A stretch of DNA of 63,978 bases, counting the filler, from a bacterium (GTDB taxonomy: Bacteria; UBA9089; CG2-30-40-21; SBAY01), in NCBI GenBank assembly GCA_040757115.1. It is 7 parts of 7 records of this genome, joined end to end, with 100 filler letters (N's around TTAATTAATTAA, not from the genome) between each part and the next. Parts side by side here need not be neighbours in the genome. Positions count along the whole stretch, not along the records: positions 23,505 to 52,701 come from JBFLYA010000024.1; 6 more parts are not named here. The stretch is one strand, 5' to 3'. The position numbers and the translations under genes were made by a program. Positions within the stretch are counted from its first letter, which is position 1, and every line of letters begins with the position of its first letter. Below the pieces are notes generated by a model that saw only the letters and a list, made by a program, of their open reading frames with translations, had not been told where the DNA came from and made no database searches. Of this stretch, positions 4,427 to 43,441 are shown one piece after another.

Positions 4427-4462
4427 TTAATTTCTAATACTTTTGCAAAATGAAGGTTAGTC

Positions 4463-4544
4463 GTCATTGCGGGGAGCGAAACGACAGAGTAATCTTGCTG
4501 TCTTCTAACTACTGAGAGATTGCTTCACTATCGCTCGCAATGAT
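4463..4544. repeat. Palindromic intergenic repeat (GTCATTGCG...GAGATTGCTTC...CGCAATGA type)
   Basis: Terminal inverted arms TCATTGCG/CGCAATGA; resembles the widespread 'VIASEAKQS/DCFASLAMT' repeat. Confidence 0.6.
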
Positions 4545-4598
4545 AAATTATCCTATTTTGCATAAATCTAATAATTTCTTTAAAAGGAGGTAAAAGAT

Positions 4599-5681
4599 AT
4601 GTATAAGTTAAGTAAAAGCAAGGTATTAGGATTAACCATCTTTGTAATATTAATAGCCAGAGGGGATTTGTTTGCCAAGACAATTCCAGATTGTGAGATA
4701 GGAGATGCTGTATTCAGATATAAGCAATACGAAGATATCTTAGGAGTAGGATTCCACCATGCCGGGATTTACTTTTGCTCACATTCTAAAGGTGATGAGG
4801 TCTATGTTCAAACAGAAGATCCATATTACATCAAAATTACAGGTTCTGACCTTCAACATAGTGTAATTGAGGCAGTTGGATATGGTGGTCCAATAAGTTG
4901 CCAACCATTTGTTGAAAGGTATATTATCTACCCCGGTGGGTATAAAGGGGCATATAATAGTGGTACTTTGGATGCTTACAAACGCAGGAAGATCATTGCC
5001 GCTGCATGGGAGCAGAAAGGGAAAAAATATGCTACTGGAAATCCAAGACATCCGTTCAATGAGAAACCAACAGACATTAAGTCTCCTGGCAACTCCTTTA
5101 GATGTGATGGCTTGGTAGAGTATTGTTATGAGGTAATACAATATCGAGGTATAGATAGTGGAGGGAATCCCTGTGATAATTATGGTTTCTTCTCATCATG
5201 GGAGGAGAAGAATTGTTGGTTTTTTGGAATACCGGGGATAATCCACGCTGTATCAGCTGCTTTCTTCGTTAAAAAAGATGCATTTTACCCTAAGGCATTA
5301 TTGGCAAGGATGAAAAAGGCATCAGGAAAGCAACTTAGTACTTCCCCTCAAATCTTTAGTTTTGATTTGTATAAAGATGGAAAAGAGATTGCAGAAGGTG
5401 GGTTGCTTAAAAAGAATGATGTCGTGACTGTCAAAACTTTTGTTACTGATGGAGATAAAGGCTCTGGTATCGATCGAGTAGAGCTTTATTATCAGGAAGT
5501 CTATGGACAATTACTTGGTAAAGGGACTCTTACTTTAATTACTACTTTAGATGATGATGAAGATATTGGAAAAGAATCCAGCTATGATTGGACTGTACCT
5601 TCAACTACTATTACATTTTTAGATTGTGAAGTATCTGCTGTGGCTTATGATAGAACAGGAAACACAATCAGAACGGTGTAA
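4599..5681 (+). CDS. Second secreted permuted papain-like enzyme, paralogue of 1367..2647, truncated after the first Ig-like domain
   Basis: AGGAGG SD; signal peptide; EIGDAVFR, HHAGIY, FRCDGLVEYCYE, FYPKAL and GSGIDRVE motifs shared with the first copy. Confidence 0.65.
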   Translation: MYKLSKSKVLGLTIFVILIARGDLFAKTIPDCEIGDAVFRYKQYEDILGVGFHHAGIYFCSHSKGDEVYVQTEDPYYIKITGSDLQHSVIEAVGYGGPISCQPFVERYIIYPGGYKGAYNSGTLDAYKRRKIIAAAWEQKGKKYATGNPRHPFNEKPTDIKSPGNSFRCDGLVEYCYEVIQYRGIDSGGNPCDNYGFFSSWEEKNCWFFGIPGIIHAVSAAFFVKKDAFYPKALLARMKKASGKQLSTSPQIFSFDLYKDGKEIAEGGLLKKNDVVTVKTFVTDGDKGSGIDRVELYYQEVYGQLLGKGTLTLITTLDDDEDIGKESSYDWTVPSTTITFLDCEVSAVAYDRTGNTIRTV

Positions 5682-6946: not shown

Positions 6947-7128
6947 CTAATCTTTAAATATACCATATTGAACTTCCTATGTCAATAAATTTTCTCTTGA
7001 CGAAGTAATAATTTTGTGATATAGTTATAATCAATAATTATTTAACCAATTACTATATGGCTTCACGAAATTAAAAACAAGTAACTAACTACCATTCACC
7101 AGTTACCAATTGCCAAAAATAAGGAGAG

Positions 7129-23504: not shown

Positions 23505-24016
23505 CGCTCTAATCTATATTCGGTATTGTAAGGCTCTATTTTAATCCCCTGGATTACTACTGAACGATATCCTTTATGCCGTGCATCATCAGGCAAATCT
23601 CCTTTATACCTTACTACTTGCTGGTTATGAACCAAAATCTTGCCCAGCTTCTTTTCCTTTACAGATGGCTTCCTTTCCTTTGGTTCTATCCCGCTTTGAA
23701 AGTTGCTATTGCCTTGTTGATCCTCTGAAGGATTGTTCGGCTTAATCTTTGGTTTCGGATTACACCCTTTTAACCTTGCTATCTCATCCCTTAATCGTTG
23801 AATCGTATCTTTTAGTTCCCTATTCTCTTTCACCAAATATTCTATCTGGCTCATCAATCGATAGATTAACTTCTTGAAATCGTAATCAGACGAGATCTTA
23901 TCTACATCAATTTCAAAAAGAGTGTCATCTCTGTTTTCCATTCCACTCTATATATCGGCATTTTTTCAAAAAATCTTCACTTTTTTATACTATTCCACAA
24001 ATTTATGAGTAGTTAC
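23505..24016 (-). mobile_element. IS66-like element: left end plus N-terminal transposase (CDS starts 23941), cut by the contig end
   Basis: Coiled coil LRDEIARLKG..KPKIKP then LPDDARHKGYRSVVIQ; terminus GTAACTACTCA at 24016. Confidence 0.7.
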
Positions 24017-36308: not shown

Positions 36309-37643
36309 TCATTGGAATTCAGAAAATATTAATCCTGCATTATGACCGCCAAAAGCGAAAGAATGTGAAAGAGCTACTTTAATAGGATAAAACTTAACTT
36401 CTTGCACAAAATTAAGATCTCTAAGAGGATATTCAAGGTTTCGACAAATATGTGTCTTTTTGTGGAACACACTTAAAGCACTTACCACGGCTTCAATTGC
36501 TCCACTGGCGCCGATAGAATGGCCAATAAGAGATTTTGTAGAATTCACAAGGGGCTTTTTCTTAAATAAATGATCTATTACACGCGATTCAACTTCATCA
36601 TTTAACTGAGTACCTGTTCCATGGGCATTAATATAATCAATATCTTTGGGTTGAAGACCAGCATACGAAAGCATGTTGCGAATCATCCGACAAATTTCTT
36701 GTCCATTAGGCTCTATCATTAAAATACTGTAGGCATCAAATGTTTCCGCATAAGATAATATTTCTGCATATATTCTCGCATTATCTCCCATTCGTCTAAG
36801 TGCTATTCTCTCTTCTTCTAAGATTAATATAGCACATCCCCCTTCACTAAAAAGAAAACCAGAACGATAACAATCAAAAGGACGATTAATTTTATCAGGC
36901 ACTATATCTCCGTGCACTAAAGTATGCGCAACATCAAATCCGCGAAAAACACCACCATATGTATCTCCCATATATTCTACGCCGCCAGCCACAGCAATAT
37001 CAACCTCACCTGATTTTATCGCCTGATAAGCATGGCCTATAGCTACTGTTCCTGAAGCACAGGCCATTGAATATACACGATTTGGTCCCTTTAAACTGTA
37101 CCGTAATCCGATTCGGGCAGCACAGGCATTAGCCATGCCCATAGAAATAGCAAATGGATTGAAGCGTGCAGGAGCGGTTTCGAGATATTTCTGAATATTC
37201 TCATTCACCGCTTTCTTTAAAGGCTGGTATAATAAATAGGCTGTATTCTGAATTATAGACTTAATCCCGCCAATACCAGTACCTAAAAATACACCTACGC
37301 TGTCGGGCATGTTTTTAATCTGAAACACTCTTTTCCTTTCATTGGAAAAAGAGACAGAAAACCCTGCATCTTCCAATGCTTGATGGCAGGCAACCAGTGA
37401 AAGTTTTTGGGAAGTATCAAGTTGCATCTCATCAATCTTATTGATTTGATAATTCTCCCAACATATTTTTGGCAAAGGAGACCAAAATTGTGAATTTGTT
37501 ATCCCATATTCTCGCCACATTTCAGGTATTTCACAAATTACACTTTTCCCCTCAAGGCATTTCTCCCAAAAATCATTTACACCCCATCCTATGGAAGTAA
37601 CAATTCCTATGCCAGTAATCACCACTTTCCTCTTGCTACTCAT
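36309..37643 (-). CDS. fabF: Beta-ketoacyl-ACP synthase II-like
   Basis: VVITGIG, ACASG (Cys), NAHGTGT and GHSIGASG (His-His), SFAFGGHN. Confidence 0.9.
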   Translation of the reverse strand: MSSKRKVVITGIGIVTSIGWGVNDFWEKCLEGKSVICEIPEMWREYGITNSQFWSPLPKICWENYQINKIDEMQLDTSQKLSLVACHQALEDAGFSVSFSNERKRVFQIKNMPDSVGVFLGTGIGGIKSIIQNTAYLLYQPLKKAVNENIQKYLETAPARFNPFAISMGMANACAARIGLRYSLKGPNRVYSMACASGTVAIGHAYQAIKSGEVDIAVAGGVEYMGDTYGGVFRGFDVAHTLVHGDIVPDKINRPFDCYRSGFLFSEGGCAILILEEERIALRRMGDNARIYAEILSYAETFDAYSILMIEPNGQEICRMIRNMLSYAGLQPKDIDYINAHGTGTQLNDEVESRVIDHLFKKKPLVNSTKSLIGHSIGASGAIEAVVSALSVFHKKTHICRNLEYPLRDLNFVQEVKFYPIKVALSHSFAFGGHNAGLIFSEFQ

Positions 37644-37903
37644 AATTCATCCCTCAGAATATTTGTCTTGATATAGTGGAAAGTATCACCAATTGTTTTG
37701 AGTTTACGAAATTCATTTTCTGAAATAGTACACTTACATTCTGTTTCAAAACCTACCAGTAATGTAATCATTTCAACCGAATCGACTCCCAGATCATTTT
37801 GATAATGCGTTTCAAAAGTTAGGTTTTCTGTTTTAACATTTAACACATCTGATACGATTTTTTTTATTTTAGCAATTATTTCCTCATCATTAAGCATTTT
37901 CAT
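37640..37903 (-). CDS. Acyl carrier protein
   Basis: DLGVDSVE phosphopantetheine site; start at ATG 37903 or 37897 after AAGGA. Confidence 0.88.
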   Translation of the reverse strand: MKMLNDEEIIAKIKKIVSDVLNVKTENLTFETHYQNDLGVDSVEMITLLVGFETECKCTISENEFRKLKTIGDTFHYIKTNILRDEL

Positions 37904-38145
37904 GCTTCCTTTGAAAATAGGAATTGGTTCTTCTCTCCCTAAAAGGTTTGAATTCTTGTTTCTCTTAAAATATTTTGAGATTCTTGAGATTTTGTGCAGA
38001 CTCATTGAGATTTATTCTAACAATCAATCTCCATACGTCTCTATCAATCTTAATTTAGATATGAACCTAATGCGCTAACAAAAACAACAATACCAAGAGA
38101 GCAAAACCTCTCACAATAACCTTTCTCATAATGTATCCTGTTTTT

Positions 38146-39093
38146 TTAATAGCCATTTAAAGTCCTTTTTAAACCCTCTTCAATAGAAACTTCTGCCCTC
38201 CATCCAAGATCATTTGAAAATCTCGTCCTGGGAAAATCTGCATTAATAGAAACTATATCAATTGCACGCTTTGAAAGAAAGGGAGATTGTTTATTTCCAA
38301 AAAGATAATAAATCGCCTCAACAATAATTGCAAGTCCCATAAGAGGAATCTTTGGAAGTATCAAGGACGGTAATCTGTAACCTGCGTTTGTAGCAAGCAG
38401 ACGGATAAAATCATGTATTCCTATCTCTCCTTCCTGAATTCCCAAATAGTGTTTTCCTACTGATCTTTCGTCGGTTGCAACCTTCATAAATAATCGGCAA
38501 AGGTCATCTATATAAATCAACGGTGCCGATTTCTCTCCACCTCGTACTAAAAATACCCTATTCTTTCCTAAATAGTGTATAAGAGTAGGCAAAAACTGTT
38601 TATCACCAGGACCATATATCAATCCCGGATAGACAAAGGTTACCTGTAATCCATATCTCTCAATATATTTTTGCACTATTCGATCTGCTGCCCATTTACT
38701 CAGCGCATAATCTGTTGCAAGAAACTTATACCTGGGGTTTACACGAAGTGCGGCAATTGAAGAACAATGCACAAGACGGCACCAAGGAGCATATTGTATA
38801 ATAGTTTGACATATGTTCTCCGTACCATCAACATTAACCTGGCGGAAGCTCTGATGGGAACCATTGTGTACATGGGCGGCAAGATGTACACATACACCAG
38901 CATTTTGCATAAGAGACGATAATACTTCTTTATTACGAATATCTCCATACACAATCTCTGCTCCATTTTTAATAAGGTCCGTAGCCTTCTGAGGTGTATG
39001 TACCAGACAAATAATCTTATTTCCTTCCCGAATAGCCCATTGCGCAAACCGTTTGCCCAGAAATCCTGTTGCTCCTGTTATAGCAATATTCAT
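38146..39093 (-). CDS. NAD-dependent epimerase/dehydratase (extended SDR)
   Basis: TGATGFLG, HLAA, YALSK, IYGPGD. Confidence 0.9.
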   Translation of the reverse strand: MNIAITGATGFLGKRFAQWAIREGNKIICLVHTPQKATDLIKNGAEIVYGDIRNKEVLSSLMQNAGVCVHLAAHVHNGSHQSFRQVNVDGTENICQTIIQYAPWCRLVHCSSIAALRVNPRYKFLATDYALSKWAADRIVQKYIERYGLQVTFVYPGLIYGPGDKQFLPTLIHYLGKNRVFLVRGGEKSAPLIYIDDLCRLFMKVATDERSVGKHYLGIQEGEIGIHDFIRLLATNAGYRLPSLILPKIPLMGLAIIVEAIYYLFGNKQSPFLSKRAIDIVSINADFPRTRFSNDLGWRAEVSIEEGLKRTLNGY

Positions 39094-40160
39094 AACTGTA
39101 TTTCCCTTCCGTCTTTCTGATACTTCCCACGGATAATACCAGTAAGTAACCGTGCATAATATACCGTTTTACCGTACAGTCCTATTGTACACTTTCTATA
39201 CCAGTAAGATTGTCTAATTTGTTCCCAATATGCTTTGGGCAATCCTTGTTTTAAATACGCCATAATAGGTTTTTCAGCTTTATTTGGAATCGGAGAACGT
39301 ACTATTAACACCTTTCGGAATACATTTTTATAATACTTCTCGTACCGCAATAATTCTTTTAAACTTGTAATTGTTTTCACTTTCAAACCGCGATTCTCAA
39401 GTACATCAAATAGGGAAACCAACGATTTATTGGTGGATCCTGGTGTGGTAATTACCAGTGCTTCATCTATTTCTTTCACCAGAGATTGATCAAGTTCTTC
39501 AATTTCTCTTATGGGGCTGGACGAACTCTTAACCCACATACAATAAGTTTCTTTCATCCTATGTTCACGATAGGGGAATATCGTCTTAATATAGTCAAAT
39601 ATTTTCAGTGCGTGCACAGGAAGAAATGTAACATACGGTATTAAGTACATTGGTTTTCCACAGGACTGTTCCGCAATACGTTCCCGGTAATTAGCCATTT
39701 GCACAAGAATCATATCCTTTGGAAACAATGAAGCATAATTTTTAATGAGAAGATGATTGGACTCACATAAGAATACATATTGATACTTCTCGTCGGCTGA
39801 CTCAAAAATCCTGCGAACAGCACGAATAAAAGGACATGGAAGATCAATGATTTCAATACCGCGCTCCCGTAATTGTTTTTCTTCATGGACGATGGAATCA
39901 TAGCCAGTGTTCACAACTATATAATCCATACCTTCCGATAGGTCCTGTAGAGTATCTACGACAGGAACACCCAAACTTTTGAGCCATTGCAGGTCAACAC
40001 CAACTCTGCCACCATCGTTCGTCAACCAATCGCGAATCACATATATTTTCTTCCCAAAGGGATCCCATGATTTTTTGAGCAAAGTAGGCATGTAGCCTTT
40101 AAGTATCTTATTTTCCAGCCATTTACAACGTCCATCATGTTTCAGAAAGACATATTCCAT
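39090..40160 (-). CDS. Diverged IspH/LytB-fold putative [4Fe-4S] protein
   Basis: Three spaced Cys in IspH-like contexts (GRCKW, IIDLPCPFI, ETYC) plus GSTN; start at ATG 40160 with GAGGA SD. Confidence 0.6.
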   Translation of the reverse strand: MEYVFLKHDGRCKWLENKILKGYMPTLLKKSWDPFGKKIYVIRDWLTNDGGRVGVDLQWLKSLGVPVVDTLQDLSEGMDYIVVNTGYDSIVHEEKQLRERGIEIIDLPCPFIRAVRRIFESADEKYQYVFLCESNHLLIKNYASLFPKDMILVQMANYRERIAEQSCGKPMYLIPYVTFLPVHALKIFDYIKTIFPYREHRMKETYCMWVKSSSSPIREIEELDQSLVKEIDEALVITTPGSTNKSLVSLFDVLENRGLKVKTITSLKELLRYEKYYKNVFRKVLIVRSPIPNKAEKPIMAYLKQGLPKAYWEQIRQSYWYRKCTIGLYGKTVYYARLLTGIIRGKYQKDGREIQL

Positions 40161-40926
40161 AGGAGTATCCTCGAACAAAATTTCTGTAGGCCACCAATGC
40201 CTGTCGCCCCTCAAACGACTCCAGCATCTCAGCCGGATAACCAAATCCTTTGCAGGTAACTTTGCTACCTAAAGTCCTCATCTGATAAGACTCAATTAAT
40301 GCTGAAGCATTGAATATCGTTCCACGTTTATTCACCATTACTTCCTGCAGAGTAAGAATGATATCAACATGAAGCGGGAATAAAAATGAATGAAATGATA
40401 CATTCATTTCATTGAGCACAAAGCGATACTTGCTACAGTGATGATTATTTGTATCCTTTAAATATTTCTTTTCCAAAAAGATTTCACTAACTGCTGTATA
40501 CATCTGCCGGCTAGCTTCAATCAAAATGGTTCCTTGAATATGAACTCCAGTAATATGGTCAGATAAATCTTCACAACCTCCATCTATAACTAATGAAGAC
40601 TGAAATACTCCATTTTTTGTTTCTACTGGAAAAGTGATAAGTACATTATTAGGCTTTGTCTTATGAACCAGGTGGTGAGAAATACGATGAGAAAAATTTT
40701 CTTCTATAAAAATATCTTTTGATTGAAAAATACCGTCTATCTTCTCACGAAGGTAGTCCAATATTTCTTTATCACACCCTTGTCCGATAATAAAACGCTT
40801 TGCAGGAATAACTCCTCTCTCAATCTCCTTCAATAATTGAGAGCACGTAACGACACCTTCCCACCTGCAAAAATTATTATATCGGTCACCCACAATAAAA
40901 TAGACTTTCTCTTGTTGCATAGACAT
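40135..40926 (-). CDS. AfsA/ScbA-related hotdog-domain protein (butyrolactone/butenolide synthase-like)
   Basis: HLVHK..NVLIT, DHITGVHIQGTILIEASRQ match the AfsA LVH..DH.PGM.L.EAARQ signature. Confidence 0.8.
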   Translation of the reverse strand: MSMQQEKVYFIVGDRYNNFCRWEGVVTCSQLLKEIERGVIPAKRFIIGQGCDKEILDYLREKIDGIFQSKDIFIEENFSHRISHHLVHKTKPNNVLITFPVETKNGVFQSSLVIDGGCEDLSDHITGVHIQGTILIEASRQMYTAVSEIFLEKKYLKDTNNHHCSKYRFVLNEMNVSFHSFLFPLHVDIILTLQEVMVNKRGTIFNASALIESYQMRTLGSKVTCKGFGYPAEMLESFEGRQALVAYRNFVRGYSYGICLSET

Positions 40927-41315
40927 CTCCTCTAACCTTTTTCTCTTTCTTTATCTTTCCTTTCTTGATCATTTATCATTTCTTTGATTTATTTCTTCTA
41001 ATACTTCCTTCCCTCTATCAAGCATAGATTCTAATACTCTTCAGTCCCTTTTCTTTCTATGTTCTCTGAACTGCAAAGCACATAGTTACACTTTCTCCCC
41101 CCTGATTTTTCTGAGATCTCTCAATAATTCAGAATTTAGATTTAACCGCAGTTTGCGTCTAAATATTTTACTATCTTCCCTCCATTTTTTACCCATAATT
41201 TCACAATCTGGAAGCATTATTCCTTTTATCGAAACAATACGCAAGTATAACAGTATGAATAGTTTTTTCACTACGATACATCCTAATTGATTTATTGATA
41301 AATCTCTACTATTTA

Positions 41316-41344
41316 ATTCTACTACAATATTTCTCATCTGTCAA
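41316..41344 (-). promoter_or_regulatory. Promoter for the afsA operon, TTGACA-N17-TAGAAT
   Basis: Perfect -35 abutting the lux box. Confidence 0.75.
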
Positions 41345-41363
41345 CCTGTAAATTTTTACAGGT
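41344..41363. promoter_or_regulatory. lux box ACCTGTAAATTTTTACAGGT
   Basis: 15 of 20 identical to the Vibrio fischeri lux box ACCTGTAGGATCGTACAGGT; within a 13-bp perfect inverted repeat (41340-41367) upstream of luxI. Confidence 0.88.
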
Positions 41364-41391
41364 TGACTTTTGAAAAATTATTTTTTAAAAT
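41363..41391 (+). promoter_or_regulatory. Promoter for luxI, TTGACT-N17-TAAAAT
   Basis: Mirror image of the minus-strand promoter. Confidence 0.75.
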
Positions 41392-41424
41392 CTATTCAAA
41401 GGGAGGGAAAAAGGAAGAAATGTA

Positions 41425-42183
41425 GTGAGTCAAGAGAAACTCAAAAATAACTCTCAAATGGACATAAACCCTCCTATTTCCTTCCAAGAAGGTCCTCTAA
41501 TTGTAAAAGAGATAAGAAATTGGGAGGAAAAGTTGTGTGTTTATCGTTTAAGACATAAGGTCTTTTGTGAAGAATTGAAATGGGTTCCCTGCACAAAAGA
41601 TAAACTGGAAATAGATGAGTATGACCAAAAATCTGTCCTCTTCGGTGTCTTTGATACGACGACCTTAAAGCCGAATAAGAAACTCCTCGCGTGCTTGAGA
41701 CTTATTCTCCCAGAAAGCGATTTTATGTTAGAGAGAGAATTCTCCTGCCTCATTGAGCCAGGGTATCATATAAGGAAGGAAAATGATACCGTAGAAATTT
41801 CAAGATTATCCGTAGCACCTGAGGCAAGAGGTAAAATATTATCCCATAATTTTAACTTTTACTATGTCTCTTTTCTCCTCTATAAAGGAATCTATCTCTG
41901 GAGTATTATACATAATATAAAGTATTTTTACATAGTGGTGGAATTAAAATTTTATCGGCTATTGCGCATCATGGGATTTTCTTGTAGAGCGATAGGAAAG
42001 CCTGAAGTAATGGAGGATAGGGTTATCGCCATAGCAGCAATATTATCTCGGAGAGATTTTGAGGTATTAAATGAAAGTAGAAATCCGGCGATGATAAGAT
42101 GGTTTAGTCAATATCAATCAAACCCTGCTCAAGAGCAATGGCAACACACTGAGCCCTATTTACTGCATCAAGCTTTTGCATAA
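41425..42183 (+). CDS. luxI: LuxI-family acyl-homoserine-lactone synthase
   Basis: YRLRHKVFCEELKW, LEIDEYD, CLRL, VEISRLSV conserved residues; start GTG 41425 or ATG 41458. Confidence 0.88.
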   Translation: MSQEKLKNNSQMDINPPISFQEGPLIVKEIRNWEEKLCVYRLRHKVFCEELKWVPCTKDKLEIDEYDQKSVLFGVFDTTTLKPNKKLLACLRLILPESDFMLEREFSCLIEPGYHIRKENDTVEISRLSVAPEARGKILSHNFNFYYVSFLLYKGIYLWSIIHNIKYFYIVVELKFYRLLRIMGFSCRAIGKPEVMEDRVIAIAAILSRRDFEVLNESRNPAMIRWFSQYQSNPAQEQWQHTEPYLLHQAFA

Positions 42184-42859
42184 TATTTTGCAGATGAAAG
42201 ATTACAGTCCGTTCACTAATCTCCAAAATCATTGATATTTCCCAGGAAGTCTTCCCTTCTTTTATCCAATTAATTACCTCTTTTTCTCGAGGGGAGAGAT
42301 GAATTTCTCTTTTCTTTCCCAAGGAGATTACCCGAGTGAGTGCGTGGTGAAAATGCGGAATAATTTGGCAAAGGATAATTTCGGTACGCTCATTATGCTC
42401 TACAGATTTTCCCCCGATAGAAAATAGACTCCCTTTGTGTGAAGAAAAATCTCGTAATCCATATGTATAACCTTCTCCCAGATTAAAAGACTCTGCTGTA
42501 TATAGAAAATCTTTCGGCGGAGGGTTTCTTTTATAAGTTTCTATCCAATACTGTAGTCTGTAGTTTAAAAAATTTTCTTTAAAGATCGGGTCAACTTTAT
42601 AATATTTTCTTTCCAGATAAATTTTTAACCACTCCTCAGGATAGCTTATATTTATAAGTTTAGAAGAAGGGATCCACAAGTCTATCGTTGTGTTTTTCTT
42701 AAGAGTGCATAATAAAGAAATGGCATGGTCGTAAGGCAGTATTAGATTTAACTTCTGAATTAACTTTTTTAAGTCCTCTTCATTATTACAGGAAAGACTT
42801 TCCTCAATTAATTCTAAAAGACAGATAGTATCTTGTTTGGATAATAAATTCTTCAACAT
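42104..42859 (-). CDS. luxR: LuxR-family AHL-binding regulator
   Basis: YPEEW..Y, VDP, W and G autoinducer-binding residues; LSPREKEV.W..EGKTSWEI HTH. ATG 42859 preferred because 42886 lies within a repeat. Confidence 0.93.
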   Translation of the reverse strand: MLKNLLSKQDTICLLELIEESLSCNNEEDLKKLIQKLNLILPYDHAISLLCTLKKNTTIDLWIPSSKLINISYPEEWLKIYLERKYYKVDPIFKENFLNYRLQYWIETYKRNPPPKDFLYTAESFNLGEGYTYGLRDFSSHKGSLFSIGGKSVEHNERTEIILCQIIPHFHHALTRVISLGKKREIHLSPREKEVINWIKEGKTSWEISMILEISERTVIFHLQNIMQKLDAVNRAQCVAIALEQGLIDID

Positions 42860-42860
42860 A

Positions 42861-43363
42861 TTCCCCTGAAAATGTTCGTAACTCATTGTAATTCCTTGAT
42901 TTACAAAACTACATTTTCATCGTCCTTCTCCTGAAAATGTGTGTAAGTTATTGTAATTGCTTGAGTTACAAAATTACATTTTCATCGTCCTTTGTGAGTC
43001 GCAGACTCATGAGCGTTTCCCCTGAAAATAGCGAATTAGTGAATTAGAGATTAGCGAATTAGTATAGTATCCACAGACTCGTATCCTCTGGTTTAGAACA
43101 CATATTCCCCCTTAATAAAGGGAGTTAGGGGGTTGTCCTTCTCCCATTTTCATTGCCCTTTGTGAGCCCTGGCTCATGTCCGTTTCCCCTGAAAATAGCG
43201 AATTAGTGAATTAGAGATTAGCGAATTAGTATAGTATCCACAGACTCGTATCCTCTGGTTTAGAACACATATTCCCCCTTAATAAAGGGAGTTAGGGGGT
43301 TGTCCTTCTCCCATTTTCATTGCCCTTTGTGAGCCCTGGCTCATGTCCGTTTCTCCTGAAGAT
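42861..43363 (-). mobile_element. Tandem array of four family A units, including a 167-bp duplication (43014-43180, 43181-43347)
   Basis: Five AGG(A/G)GAA cores, the last directly before the luxR ATG. Confidence 0.85.
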
Positions 43364-43441
43364 ATTTATGTGCCATAATAACCCATTCTTTAGCATCCTC
43401 TTCTGAAAATTCTACAGTAGAATCATAATCACCTCTTCCCT

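Follow-up and report, generated by a model that had tools for sequence, protein, structure and literature searches.

A lux-box-type operator predicted to be shared by two divergent promoters, of a luxI-like gene and an AfsA-like operon, in an uncultured bacterium

Can one LuxR-type operator serve two back-to-back promoters, so that a quorum-sensing signal synthase and a biosynthetic operon transcribed in the opposite direction are controlled together? The question is raised by an intergenic region in a 63,978-nt stretch of DNA (the window, along which all positions are counted) from the genome assembly GCA_040757115.1, in which a luxI-like gene and an AfsA-like gene diverge from a palindrome and a luxR-type gene lies on the far side of luxI. 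The original prediction held that a single LuxR-type operator is common to two divergent promoters in this region. Our best explanation of the locus as a whole, to which we give a probability of about 0.55, is a shared operator with two outward promoters, activation of both by LuxR, and read-through of the left transcript into afsA.

Positions 23505–52701 of the window come from one contig (C156, 29197 bases). The remainder is off-contig or N, and therefore no features are linked across these borders. The host genome comprises 4.3 Mb in 462 contigs, with about 37% G+C as calculated from base counts. The host is an uncultured, low-GC, groundwater-type bacterium of a group in which quorum sensing is essentially unstudied. 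Flanking genes were called by Pfam, which confirmed the predicted luxI, luxR and afsA; NCBIfam, Rfam, Atlas, an AF2 model and Foldseek were used in addition.

A probable palindromic lux-box-type operator

The element at the centre of the locus is a 28-bp perfect palindrome at 41340–41367, GTCAACCTGTAAA-TT-TTTACAGGTTGAC, with 13-nt arms, a 2-nt spacer and a dyad axis between 41353 and 41354. It was read directly from the sequence, in agreement with the predicted 13-bp perfect inverted repeat with a TT spacer, and was recovered by a repeat finder. The same program extends the inverted repeat to 37-nt arms (41316–41352 and 41355–41391) with 73% complementarity, that is, from one -10 element to the other. 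The palindrome includes a 20-bp core, ACCTGTAAATTTTTACAGGT (ACCTGT-N8-ACAGGT, 41344–41363), in which 9 of 10 pairs are palindromic; the whole 28 bp are perfect save the central TT. The core has the form of a lux-box-type site, with dyad symmetry over about 20 bp around CTG-N10-CAG. Its predicted agreement with the Vibrio fischeri lux box at 15 of 20 positions was reproduced by a hand count against the 20-mer given as promoter core in Table 3 of PMC4444344. The segment 41344–41363 is very probably the operator of the neighbouring LuxR-type regulator and would be bound by a dimer of it.

A chance origin of the palindrome is unlikely, because only 0.03 matches to the 20-mer with at most three mismatches are expected per window (two or more matches occurred in none of 100 shuffles), because 30 first-order Markov simulations of the window gave perfect arms (spacer 0–8) with maxima of 9–12 nt, against the 13 nt observed, and because the 12 fixed positions ACCTGT/ACAGGT have one perfect copy in the 4.3-Mb genome, where base composition predicts about 0.16. 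Boxes with one mismatch number two genome-wide, compared with about 6.5 expected from base composition. The three best near-match boxes of the host genome are all within open reading frames (ORFs), and a pattern search of the same genome gave one further box-like site, with two mismatches, in coding sequence. In the genomes G001 and G045, pattern scans against a reversed-pattern control yielded no perfect or near-perfect box beyond the luxI-linked site, the pattern counts being similar to the control (8 vs 9 and 2 vs 1, respectively). The host genome encodes one regulator with PF03472 and one synthase with PF00765, and contains one perfect box.

The palindrome could also be the site of some other dimeric regulator, or a chance or structural hairpin, since AT-rich intergenic DNA easily yields imperfect inverted repeats (14 pairs in 600 nt). 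We consider this highly improbable: the perfect arm exceeds those of all 30 simulations, and the motif accompanies luxI in 20 loci, where it co-varies with the LuxR recognition helix (see below). A role as a terminator would make no sense with genes diverging from the palindrome. The palindrome was rejected as a terminator candidate, no terminator-like site being predicted anywhere in 40800–41600.

Two predicted divergent promoters at the edges of the operator

A consensus scan independently found both of the predicted mirror-image promoters. The rightward promoter (41363–41391, plus strand) consists of TTGACT (41363–41368) and TAAAAT (41386–41391) separated by 17 nt; it matches the consensus at 10 of 12 positions and leads into luxI from a predicted start at about 41398. 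The leftward promoter (41316–41344, minus strand) consists of TTGACA (41344–41339) and TAGAAT (41321–41316) with the same 17-nt spacing, matches at 11 of 12 positions, and has its predicted start at about 41309. These starts are sequence-based positions, placed 7 nt past each predicted -10, and the dyad lies about 44.5 bp upstream of both.

The operator and the promoters are closely interlocked. Each -35 hexamer begins at the last base pair of the 20-bp core and supplies the outer 4 bp of a palindrome arm; the perfect 13-nt arms thus result from the superposition of a lux box on -35 elements (TTGAC) that mirror each other. The core shares 1 bp with each -35 and is located entirely upstream of both -10s and spacers, and TTGAC is covered solely by the extended palindrome. 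One operator, divergent genes and promoter elements on both sides are found together here, as in a bidirectional quorum-sensing promoter. We regard it as likely that both divergent promoters are functional.

The 800-nt region contains five promoter-like sites, compared with 2.4 ± 1.6 in shuffled sequences. Near-consensus promoters are frequent in the window, with 46 sites at 10/12 or better. Several 11/12 sites are located just 5' of ORFs, and for this reason the host appears to use promoters with Escherichia coli-like -35 and -10 elements.

Elsewhere in the window, two more back-to-back near-consensus pairs (10–11/12) are present in divergent intergenic regions, at 6985/6997 and 10412/10451.

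Conservation of the box and the predicted leftward promoter in related loci

Relatives of luxI were gathered from kin genomes, named genome records (17 loci) and metagenome contigs (22 loci). They were found in 7 of 61 kin genomes and in one of five genomes of the same family, with three strong matches in other phyla; the close named relatives belong to metagenome-assembled genomes labelled 'Nitrospirae bacterium'. A box is present upstream of luxI in 20 of 25 assessable loci, the window included. Fourteen of these boxes were assigned by a palindrome-plus-core criterion, four have a CTA/TAG variant (L012, L031, L032 and L017), and two are weaker (L015 and L049). In the other five assessable loci (L018, L042, L044, L046 and L047) no box was found upstream of the luxI-related gene. 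Three loci with less than 70 nt of upstream sequence (L037, L040 and L043) were not assessable, and L013, with 35% LuxI identity and a gene on the opposite strand, was left out of the consensus scan. L036 and L038 have one flank in common and count once, which makes one fewer independent locus.

The distance from the box to the luxI start codon is mostly 37–64 nt (61 nt in the window), with longer distances in L010 (342 nt), L035 (270 nt) and L041 (182 nt). In L010, about 340 nt of unrelated sequence (4450–4767) separates the conserved rightward promoter from luxI, compared with 61 nt in the window; no repeat matching this insert was found in the window's genome.

On the left side of the box, the position of the -10 element is nearly fixed. 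In 17 loci aligned at the box, the sequence to its left was searched for hexamers with T1, A2 and at least four of six matches to TATAAT. Such a hexamer starts 19–23 nt from the box edge in 17/17 loci (nine at 21 nt, four at 22 nt), against a background of about 0.74 loci per offset. With the three weaker boxes added the count is 18 of 20, L015 fitting at 20 nt. In the window and in L010 the flank is T+TGAC and the gap 22 nt, and most other loci have GT+GAC(A) directly after the box and a 21-nt gap. This joint shift of the -35 and the -10 argues for promoter elements and against parts of the regulator's site.

The closest comparison is provided by L010, a locus from the same genus. Over the block bounded by the two -10s, box included, it is 71% identical to the window (65/92 columns) even though the genes on the left are not the same, and identity drops to 30–41% outside this block. 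The rightward promoter of L010, TTGCTT-17-TATAAT, has the same geometry as that of the window. A minus-strand ORF is located left of the box wherever the sequence suffices, except in L049.

These data bear on the possibility that the box controls luxI only, the leftward hexamers being LuxR-independent or unused and the afsA operon being transcribed from a promoter inside its leader. The long leader, its internal promoter-like site (described below) and the TGn motif on 8/17 leftward -10s of the relatives, which can free a promoter from its activator, would agree with such an arrangement. However, the leftward -10 keeps its distance from the box in 18/20 loci despite differing flanks and genes, a fixed phasing that argues for functional coupling and is otherwise hard to explain, and the block of homology between the window and L010 takes in the left -10. 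Control of luxI only is therefore quite unlikely in our estimate.

Co-variation of box bases and LuxR residues

The site is conserved at orthologous promoters and is also matched to the DNA-reading residues of the regulator. In an alignment of 16 regulators, numbered after the window LuxR, residue 226 (in the segment ISERTV) is an Arg wherever box position 5 is G (12 of 12 loci, 24/24 half-sites). In all four loci with A at this box position (8/8 half-sites) it is Cys, Asp, Asn and Asn. The CTA...TAG operator variant is confined to L012, L017, L031 and L032, all of which lack Arg at the ISERTV position. A looser pattern is seen for residue 229, which is mostly Asn with CTGTCA, Ile or Val with CTGTAA, and Lys with C at position 8.

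In the AF2 model, residue 226 comes second in the recognition helix (225–239); it aligns with an Arg of CviR. We take it to be the equivalent of TraR position 203, by a hand alignment with the TraR sequence. According to a review (PMC9654057), TraR position 203 is a DNA contact, and Arg is present at the equivalent position in CviR and QscR. The pairs Arg226/G5 and Cys, Asp or Asn226/A5 are therefore a candidate specificity code. The LuxR tree is largely unresolved (7/11 inner branches are open), and the pairing of L012 with the Arg-type L033 is supported at 92/89. Since L012 groups with an Arg-type regulator, the tree suggests at least two independent specificity switches.

Taken together, the conserved box, the phased leftward -10, the homology block, the co-variation, and the presence of a single LuxR, a single LuxI and a single box in the genome support the predicted operator common to two divergent promoters.

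Activation or repression

In the mechanism that we propose, one LuxR dimer, encoded 0.7 kb away, would bind the dyad of 41344–41363, and two sigma70-type promoters would fire outwards from the box edges. Rightward transcription would produce the luxI-like synthase and thus constitute autoregulation, and the leftward transcript would first cover a leader of about 380 nt and then enter the AfsA-like biosynthetic operon. Both promoters would be activated in a signal-dependent manner, as at class II TraR promoters, and their good -35 and -10 elements would give some basal expression. What the analysis shows is the anatomy of the site, its conservation, the phased leftward -10 and the protein–DNA co-variation; LuxR dimer binding, the use of both promoters, activation, and a left transcript reaching afsA are what we infer here.

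Activation, rather than repression, is the mode that we favour with some confidence, by analogy with known systems, because the box position, counted from the predicted starts, matches class II TraR promoters and because a single tra box I and the rsaL-lasI promoter provide precedents. Class II tra boxes are located about 45 nt upstream of the start, partly over the -35, as stated in PMC3907764.

The same operator and promoters could also serve a LuxR that represses both directions, with the signal either releasing LuxR, as in EsaR-like systems, or being required for repression in a negative feedback. This option, left open in the original prediction, is in accord with the near-consensus sequence and optimal 17-bp spacing of both promoters, which should need no activator, and with the outer 4 bp of the palindrome arms, which are within the -35s, so that both would be blocked by a protein spanning all 28 bp. 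The EsaR group, furthermore, typically has luxI/luxR pairs that converge and overlap. In a promoter library described in PMC4444344, LuxR was able to repress where the box overlaps the core promoter.

Against repression, the 20-bp core is upstream of the -35, with an overlap of 1 bp, and lies neither in the spacer nor on the start; an operator over the -10, the spacer or the start, as in the EsaR type, is not what the core provides, and its position is that of TraR class II sites. The luxI-side promoter has no recognisable -35 in most relatives, which agrees with a need for an activator. CviR, the closest homologue with a solved structure, is an activator. Finally, near-consensus promoters are so common in the window (the 46 sites mentioned above) that good -35s by themselves are no sign of repression. 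Of the evidence for an EsaR-like mode, the near-consensus -35s stand as described, whereas the predicted geometry fits class II activation and the -35s are not diagnostic; we consider repression unlikely, though a serious alternative because both promoters are near consensus.

The leader and the AfsA-like operon

The leader between the left promoter and the AfsA-like gene (40927–41309, minus strand, about 380 nt) is a patchwork. A 194-nt repeat in it, at 41113–41306, has a 93% copy on contig C3 (G000:C3:12646-12838; L060 1647–1839), which loses similarity at about 41306–41309, a few bp from the predicted leftward start. On C3 the repeat precedes a gene for a 61-aa HTH_7-like protein, and the window retains a decayed remnant of this gene. 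The consensus scan also identified an internal promoter-like site on the minus strand, GTGAAA-16-TATACT preceded by TGn (an extended -10), at 41271–41244; this site is kept in the C3 copy. No conservation of the leader is seen in L010. A search with Rfam over 40700–41600 found no riboswitch or small RNA (sRNA) family in the leader, the sole match being a chance SNORA61 (E 0.36) inside luxI.

Two short ORFs are present on the minus strand of the leader. One, of 83 codons (41086–41337), overlaps the left promoter. The other, of 43 codons with the ribosome-binding site (RBS) AAGGAA, starts at 41217 and is open in both repeat copies (40–43 codons). No Pfam or NCBIfam match was found for either, and no RsaL-like regulator was found.

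The leftward promoter might then mainly yield a short leader product, either an sRNA or the 43-codon ORF, that acts as an RsaL-like feedback element. The small regulator rsaL is divergent from lasI in Pseudomonas aeruginosa (PMC10746200), and the short ORF has both an RBS and an open frame in the two copies. Nevertheless, substitutions in it between the copies are four nonsynonymous to two synonymous, neither ORF has a family match, Rfam gave none, no terminator-like site is predicted ahead of afsA, and the leader differs in the same-genus locus. We regard a short product as the main output of this promoter as improbable, and read-through of the left transcript into afsA as fairly likely.

The putative target operon (36309–40926, minus strand) extends from the AfsA-like to a FabF-like gene. 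The AfsA-like hotdog gene (40135–40926) matches PF03756 with 34.4 bits against a cut-off of 24, over residues 86–151. Its product has a feature score of 0.96 in Atlas and a structural TM of 0.83/0.88 to AfsA clusters, and with both the AfsA hotdog domain and the fold it is a predicted enzyme of this family of butenolide/gamma-butyrolactone phosphate synthases. It is followed on the same strand by genes assigned from Pfam and NCBIfam: a LytB/IspH-like gene (39090–40244), an NAD-dependent short-chain dehydrogenase/reductase (SDR) or epimerase-type reductase (38146–39093), an acyl carrier protein (ACP, 37640–38005) and the FabF-like ketosynthase (36309–37643).

Genes on the same strand continue to about 25878. 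The segment 25878–36299 encodes a TPR protein, an activase, an SDR, an MMPL/RND-type exporter and a LolA-like protein. Together with the AfsA, ACP and ketosynthase genes it looks like an unusual lipid biosynthesis and export cluster. The activase, of 1409 aa, joins a double BcrAD/HgdC-type part to DUF2229 and to an HGD-D-like end. In L041, the leftward cargo is likewise an HGD-D gene.

Genes of the synthase and the regulator

The luxI-like acyl-signal synthase gene (41425–42183, plus strand) has a GTG start with the RBS AAGGAAG 7 nt upstream, and its product matches PF00765 with 56.6 bits against a cut-off of 24. The protein has weak matches (E about 1e-3) to the solved acyl-homoserine lactone (AHL) synthases TofI and RpaI. 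NCBIfam models of AHL synthases give 57–59 bits, with cut-offs of 250–292, and the best NCBIfam match is TIGR03694, a PEP-CTERM/exosortase-associated acyltransferase (69.9 vs a cut-off of 111.95).

The luxR-type gene (42104–42886, minus strand) is convergent with luxI, with an 80-nt 3' overlap. Its product matches PF03472 (69.6 bits) and PF00196 (70.8 bits), and thus has the autoinducer-binding domain and GerE helix-turn-helix of a cognate regulator for a lux-box-type operator. The closest solved structure is CviR (E 2.8e-34 over residues 21–253). The AF2 model has a pLDDT of 87.7, and its top Foldseek matches are CviR (rank 1), RhlR and TraR. The best NCBIfam match is TIGR03020 (EpsA regulator), under the cut-off. 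Since the best matches of both proteins, TIGR03694 and TIGR03020, are under their cut-offs, the comparison suggests that the synthase and the regulator form a sister group to classical LuxI/LuxR.

The 3' overlap of the two genes is itself conserved. Of 15 loci with both ORFs, 11 have an overlap of exactly 80 nt (the window, L011, L015, L017, L031, L033, L034, L038, L039, L045 and L049); in the other four it is 116 nt (L016), 68 nt (L032), 49 nt (L010) and 32 nt (L012). An antisense overlap of about 26 codons that is kept so strictly points to coupled expression or to transcriptional interference.

Directly 5' of luxR (42861–43364) are two tandem repeats, one of 65 nt × 2.0 that spans the luxR start region and one of 167 nt × 2.3. 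Copies of the 167-nt unit are dispersed over the genome (177 blastn high-scoring segment pairs on many contigs), frequently in tandem.

Several observations weigh against the reading with a shared operator, activation and read-through. About 380 nt separate the start codon of the AfsA-like gene from the predicted leftward start. The intervening leader is a patchwork whose repeat (41113–41306) has a second copy elsewhere, and as it carries the promoter-like site at 41271–41244, the operon may be expressed independently of LuxR. Thus, of the predicted joint control of luxI and afsA, the shared operator stands and the link to afsA is weaker. Both promoters are near consensus (10/12 and 11/12) and could run without an activator, which fits repression or modest modulation. 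Among the 20 box-bearing loci, two (L017 and L049) have no leftward -10 at 19–23 nt, and the rightward -10s of the relatives are scattered over 19–28 nt from the box, so the symmetry of the window is not general. The four non-Arg loci may represent just two independent changes, given the unresolved tree. Finally, as the luxI-like protein is under the NCBIfam cut-offs for AHL synthases, the signal may be no canonical AHL.

A possible mobile cassette

The genes beyond the leftward promoter vary between the related loci. The cargo on this side, on the minus strand, includes a response regulator and an HD-GYP protein (L012, L034 and L039), CheR and a sensor kinase (L050), methyltransferases (L010 and L011), an HGD-D protein (L041) and leucyl-tRNA synthetase (L031), as well as an Fe-S/DUF362 gene and uncharacterised proteins.

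We tentatively suggest, with more doubt than for the reading set out above, that luxR, luxI and the two-faced promoter of about 76 bp form a horizontally mobile quorum-sensing cassette, whose left edge is an outward LuxR-phased promoter that would place whichever operon lies beyond it under density control. Four points argue for this. The homology with L010 ends at about 41310–41315, beyond the left -10 and short of the predicted start at 41309 by a few bp, and this end and that of the C3 leader copy fall within a few bp of each other. The leftward cargo differs in nearly every locus. Close luxI relatives are found in other phyla and in only one of five same-family genomes. Operator specificity appears to have been re-tuned at least twice, from Arg226 to Cys, Asp or Asn together with a change from CTG/CAG to CTA/TAG.

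A phage-type integrase gene lies beside luxR in L011 (5717–6757), and in L049 an integrase and a Y2-type transposase are encoded immediately to the left of the degenerate box (786–2391). These neighbours hint that the cassette travels with mobile elements.

If the cassette reading is true, an AHL-like signal would be coupled in the host to a second, butenolide-like lipid signal. If the shared-operator reading is correct, one dimer would tie signal amplification to a lipid or butenolide-type biosynthesis and export cluster of about 5–15 kb. The comparative set yields a testable operator rule for box position 5, where G is paired with Arg and A with Cys, Asp or Asn. A second testable item is the region itself, a small natural promoter with two outputs that measures about 76 bp, both -10s included.

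Comparison with known regulatory systems

A narrow literature search (lux-box bidirectional promoters; Nitrospirae LuxI/LuxR/AHL) found no prior description of this promoter. The architecture is already known from tra box I of TraR and from the rsaL-lasI promoter. New are the lineage, the conservation of the two-faced promoter in a luxR-luxI cassette beside changing cargo, the paired Arg/G switch, and the AfsA-type target.

The convergent, overlapping luxI/luxR pair resembles the arrangement of EsaR-type repressors in Pantoea, Erwinia and Serratia. The esa boxes are superimposed on elements of the core promoter, and esaI is not known to be under EsaR control; in contrast, the box described here is upstream of both -35s, at the promoter of the synthase gene. 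With CviR of Chromobacterium violaceum, the closest solved homologue, the window LuxR shares the ISERTV Arg at the co-varying position, but identity is just about 30%.

In V. fischeri the box is centred at -42.5 of a promoter without a -35, and luxR is divergent, about 150 bp away, with its own promoter. In the window, by contrast, luxR is convergent with luxI and it is the divergent promoter that abuts the box. The boxes themselves are alike in being upstream of luxI and in agreeing at all 14 outer positions (ACCTGTA/TACAGGT) among the 15 shared with the 20-mer in PMC4444344.

The rsaL-lasI bidirectional promoter of P. aeruginosa, as PMC10746200 describes it, has one LasR lux box through which LasR triggers both genes. 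As in the present locus, a single box separates a synthase gene from a divergent gene. The divergent gene there is the small repressor rsaL with its own operator by the box, whereas here it is a biosynthetic operon behind a long leader.

A close parallel in layout is tra box I of the Agrobacterium Ti plasmid. PMC3907764 reports that the divergent traCDG and traAFB operons have this single box in common; in both systems (traAFBH/traCDG with TraR in Agrobacterium) one dyad-symmetric operator of the LuxR family faces two divergent operons. The dyad at about -44.5 from the predicted starts also corresponds to the distance of about 45 nt at TraR class II promoters given in the same source. The tra box is 18 bp long, whereas the core described here has 20 bp and one of its targets is the synthase gene itself. 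Unlike in the tra system, both -35s are near consensus and contribute to a perfect palindrome, and the host belongs to an uncultured lineage.

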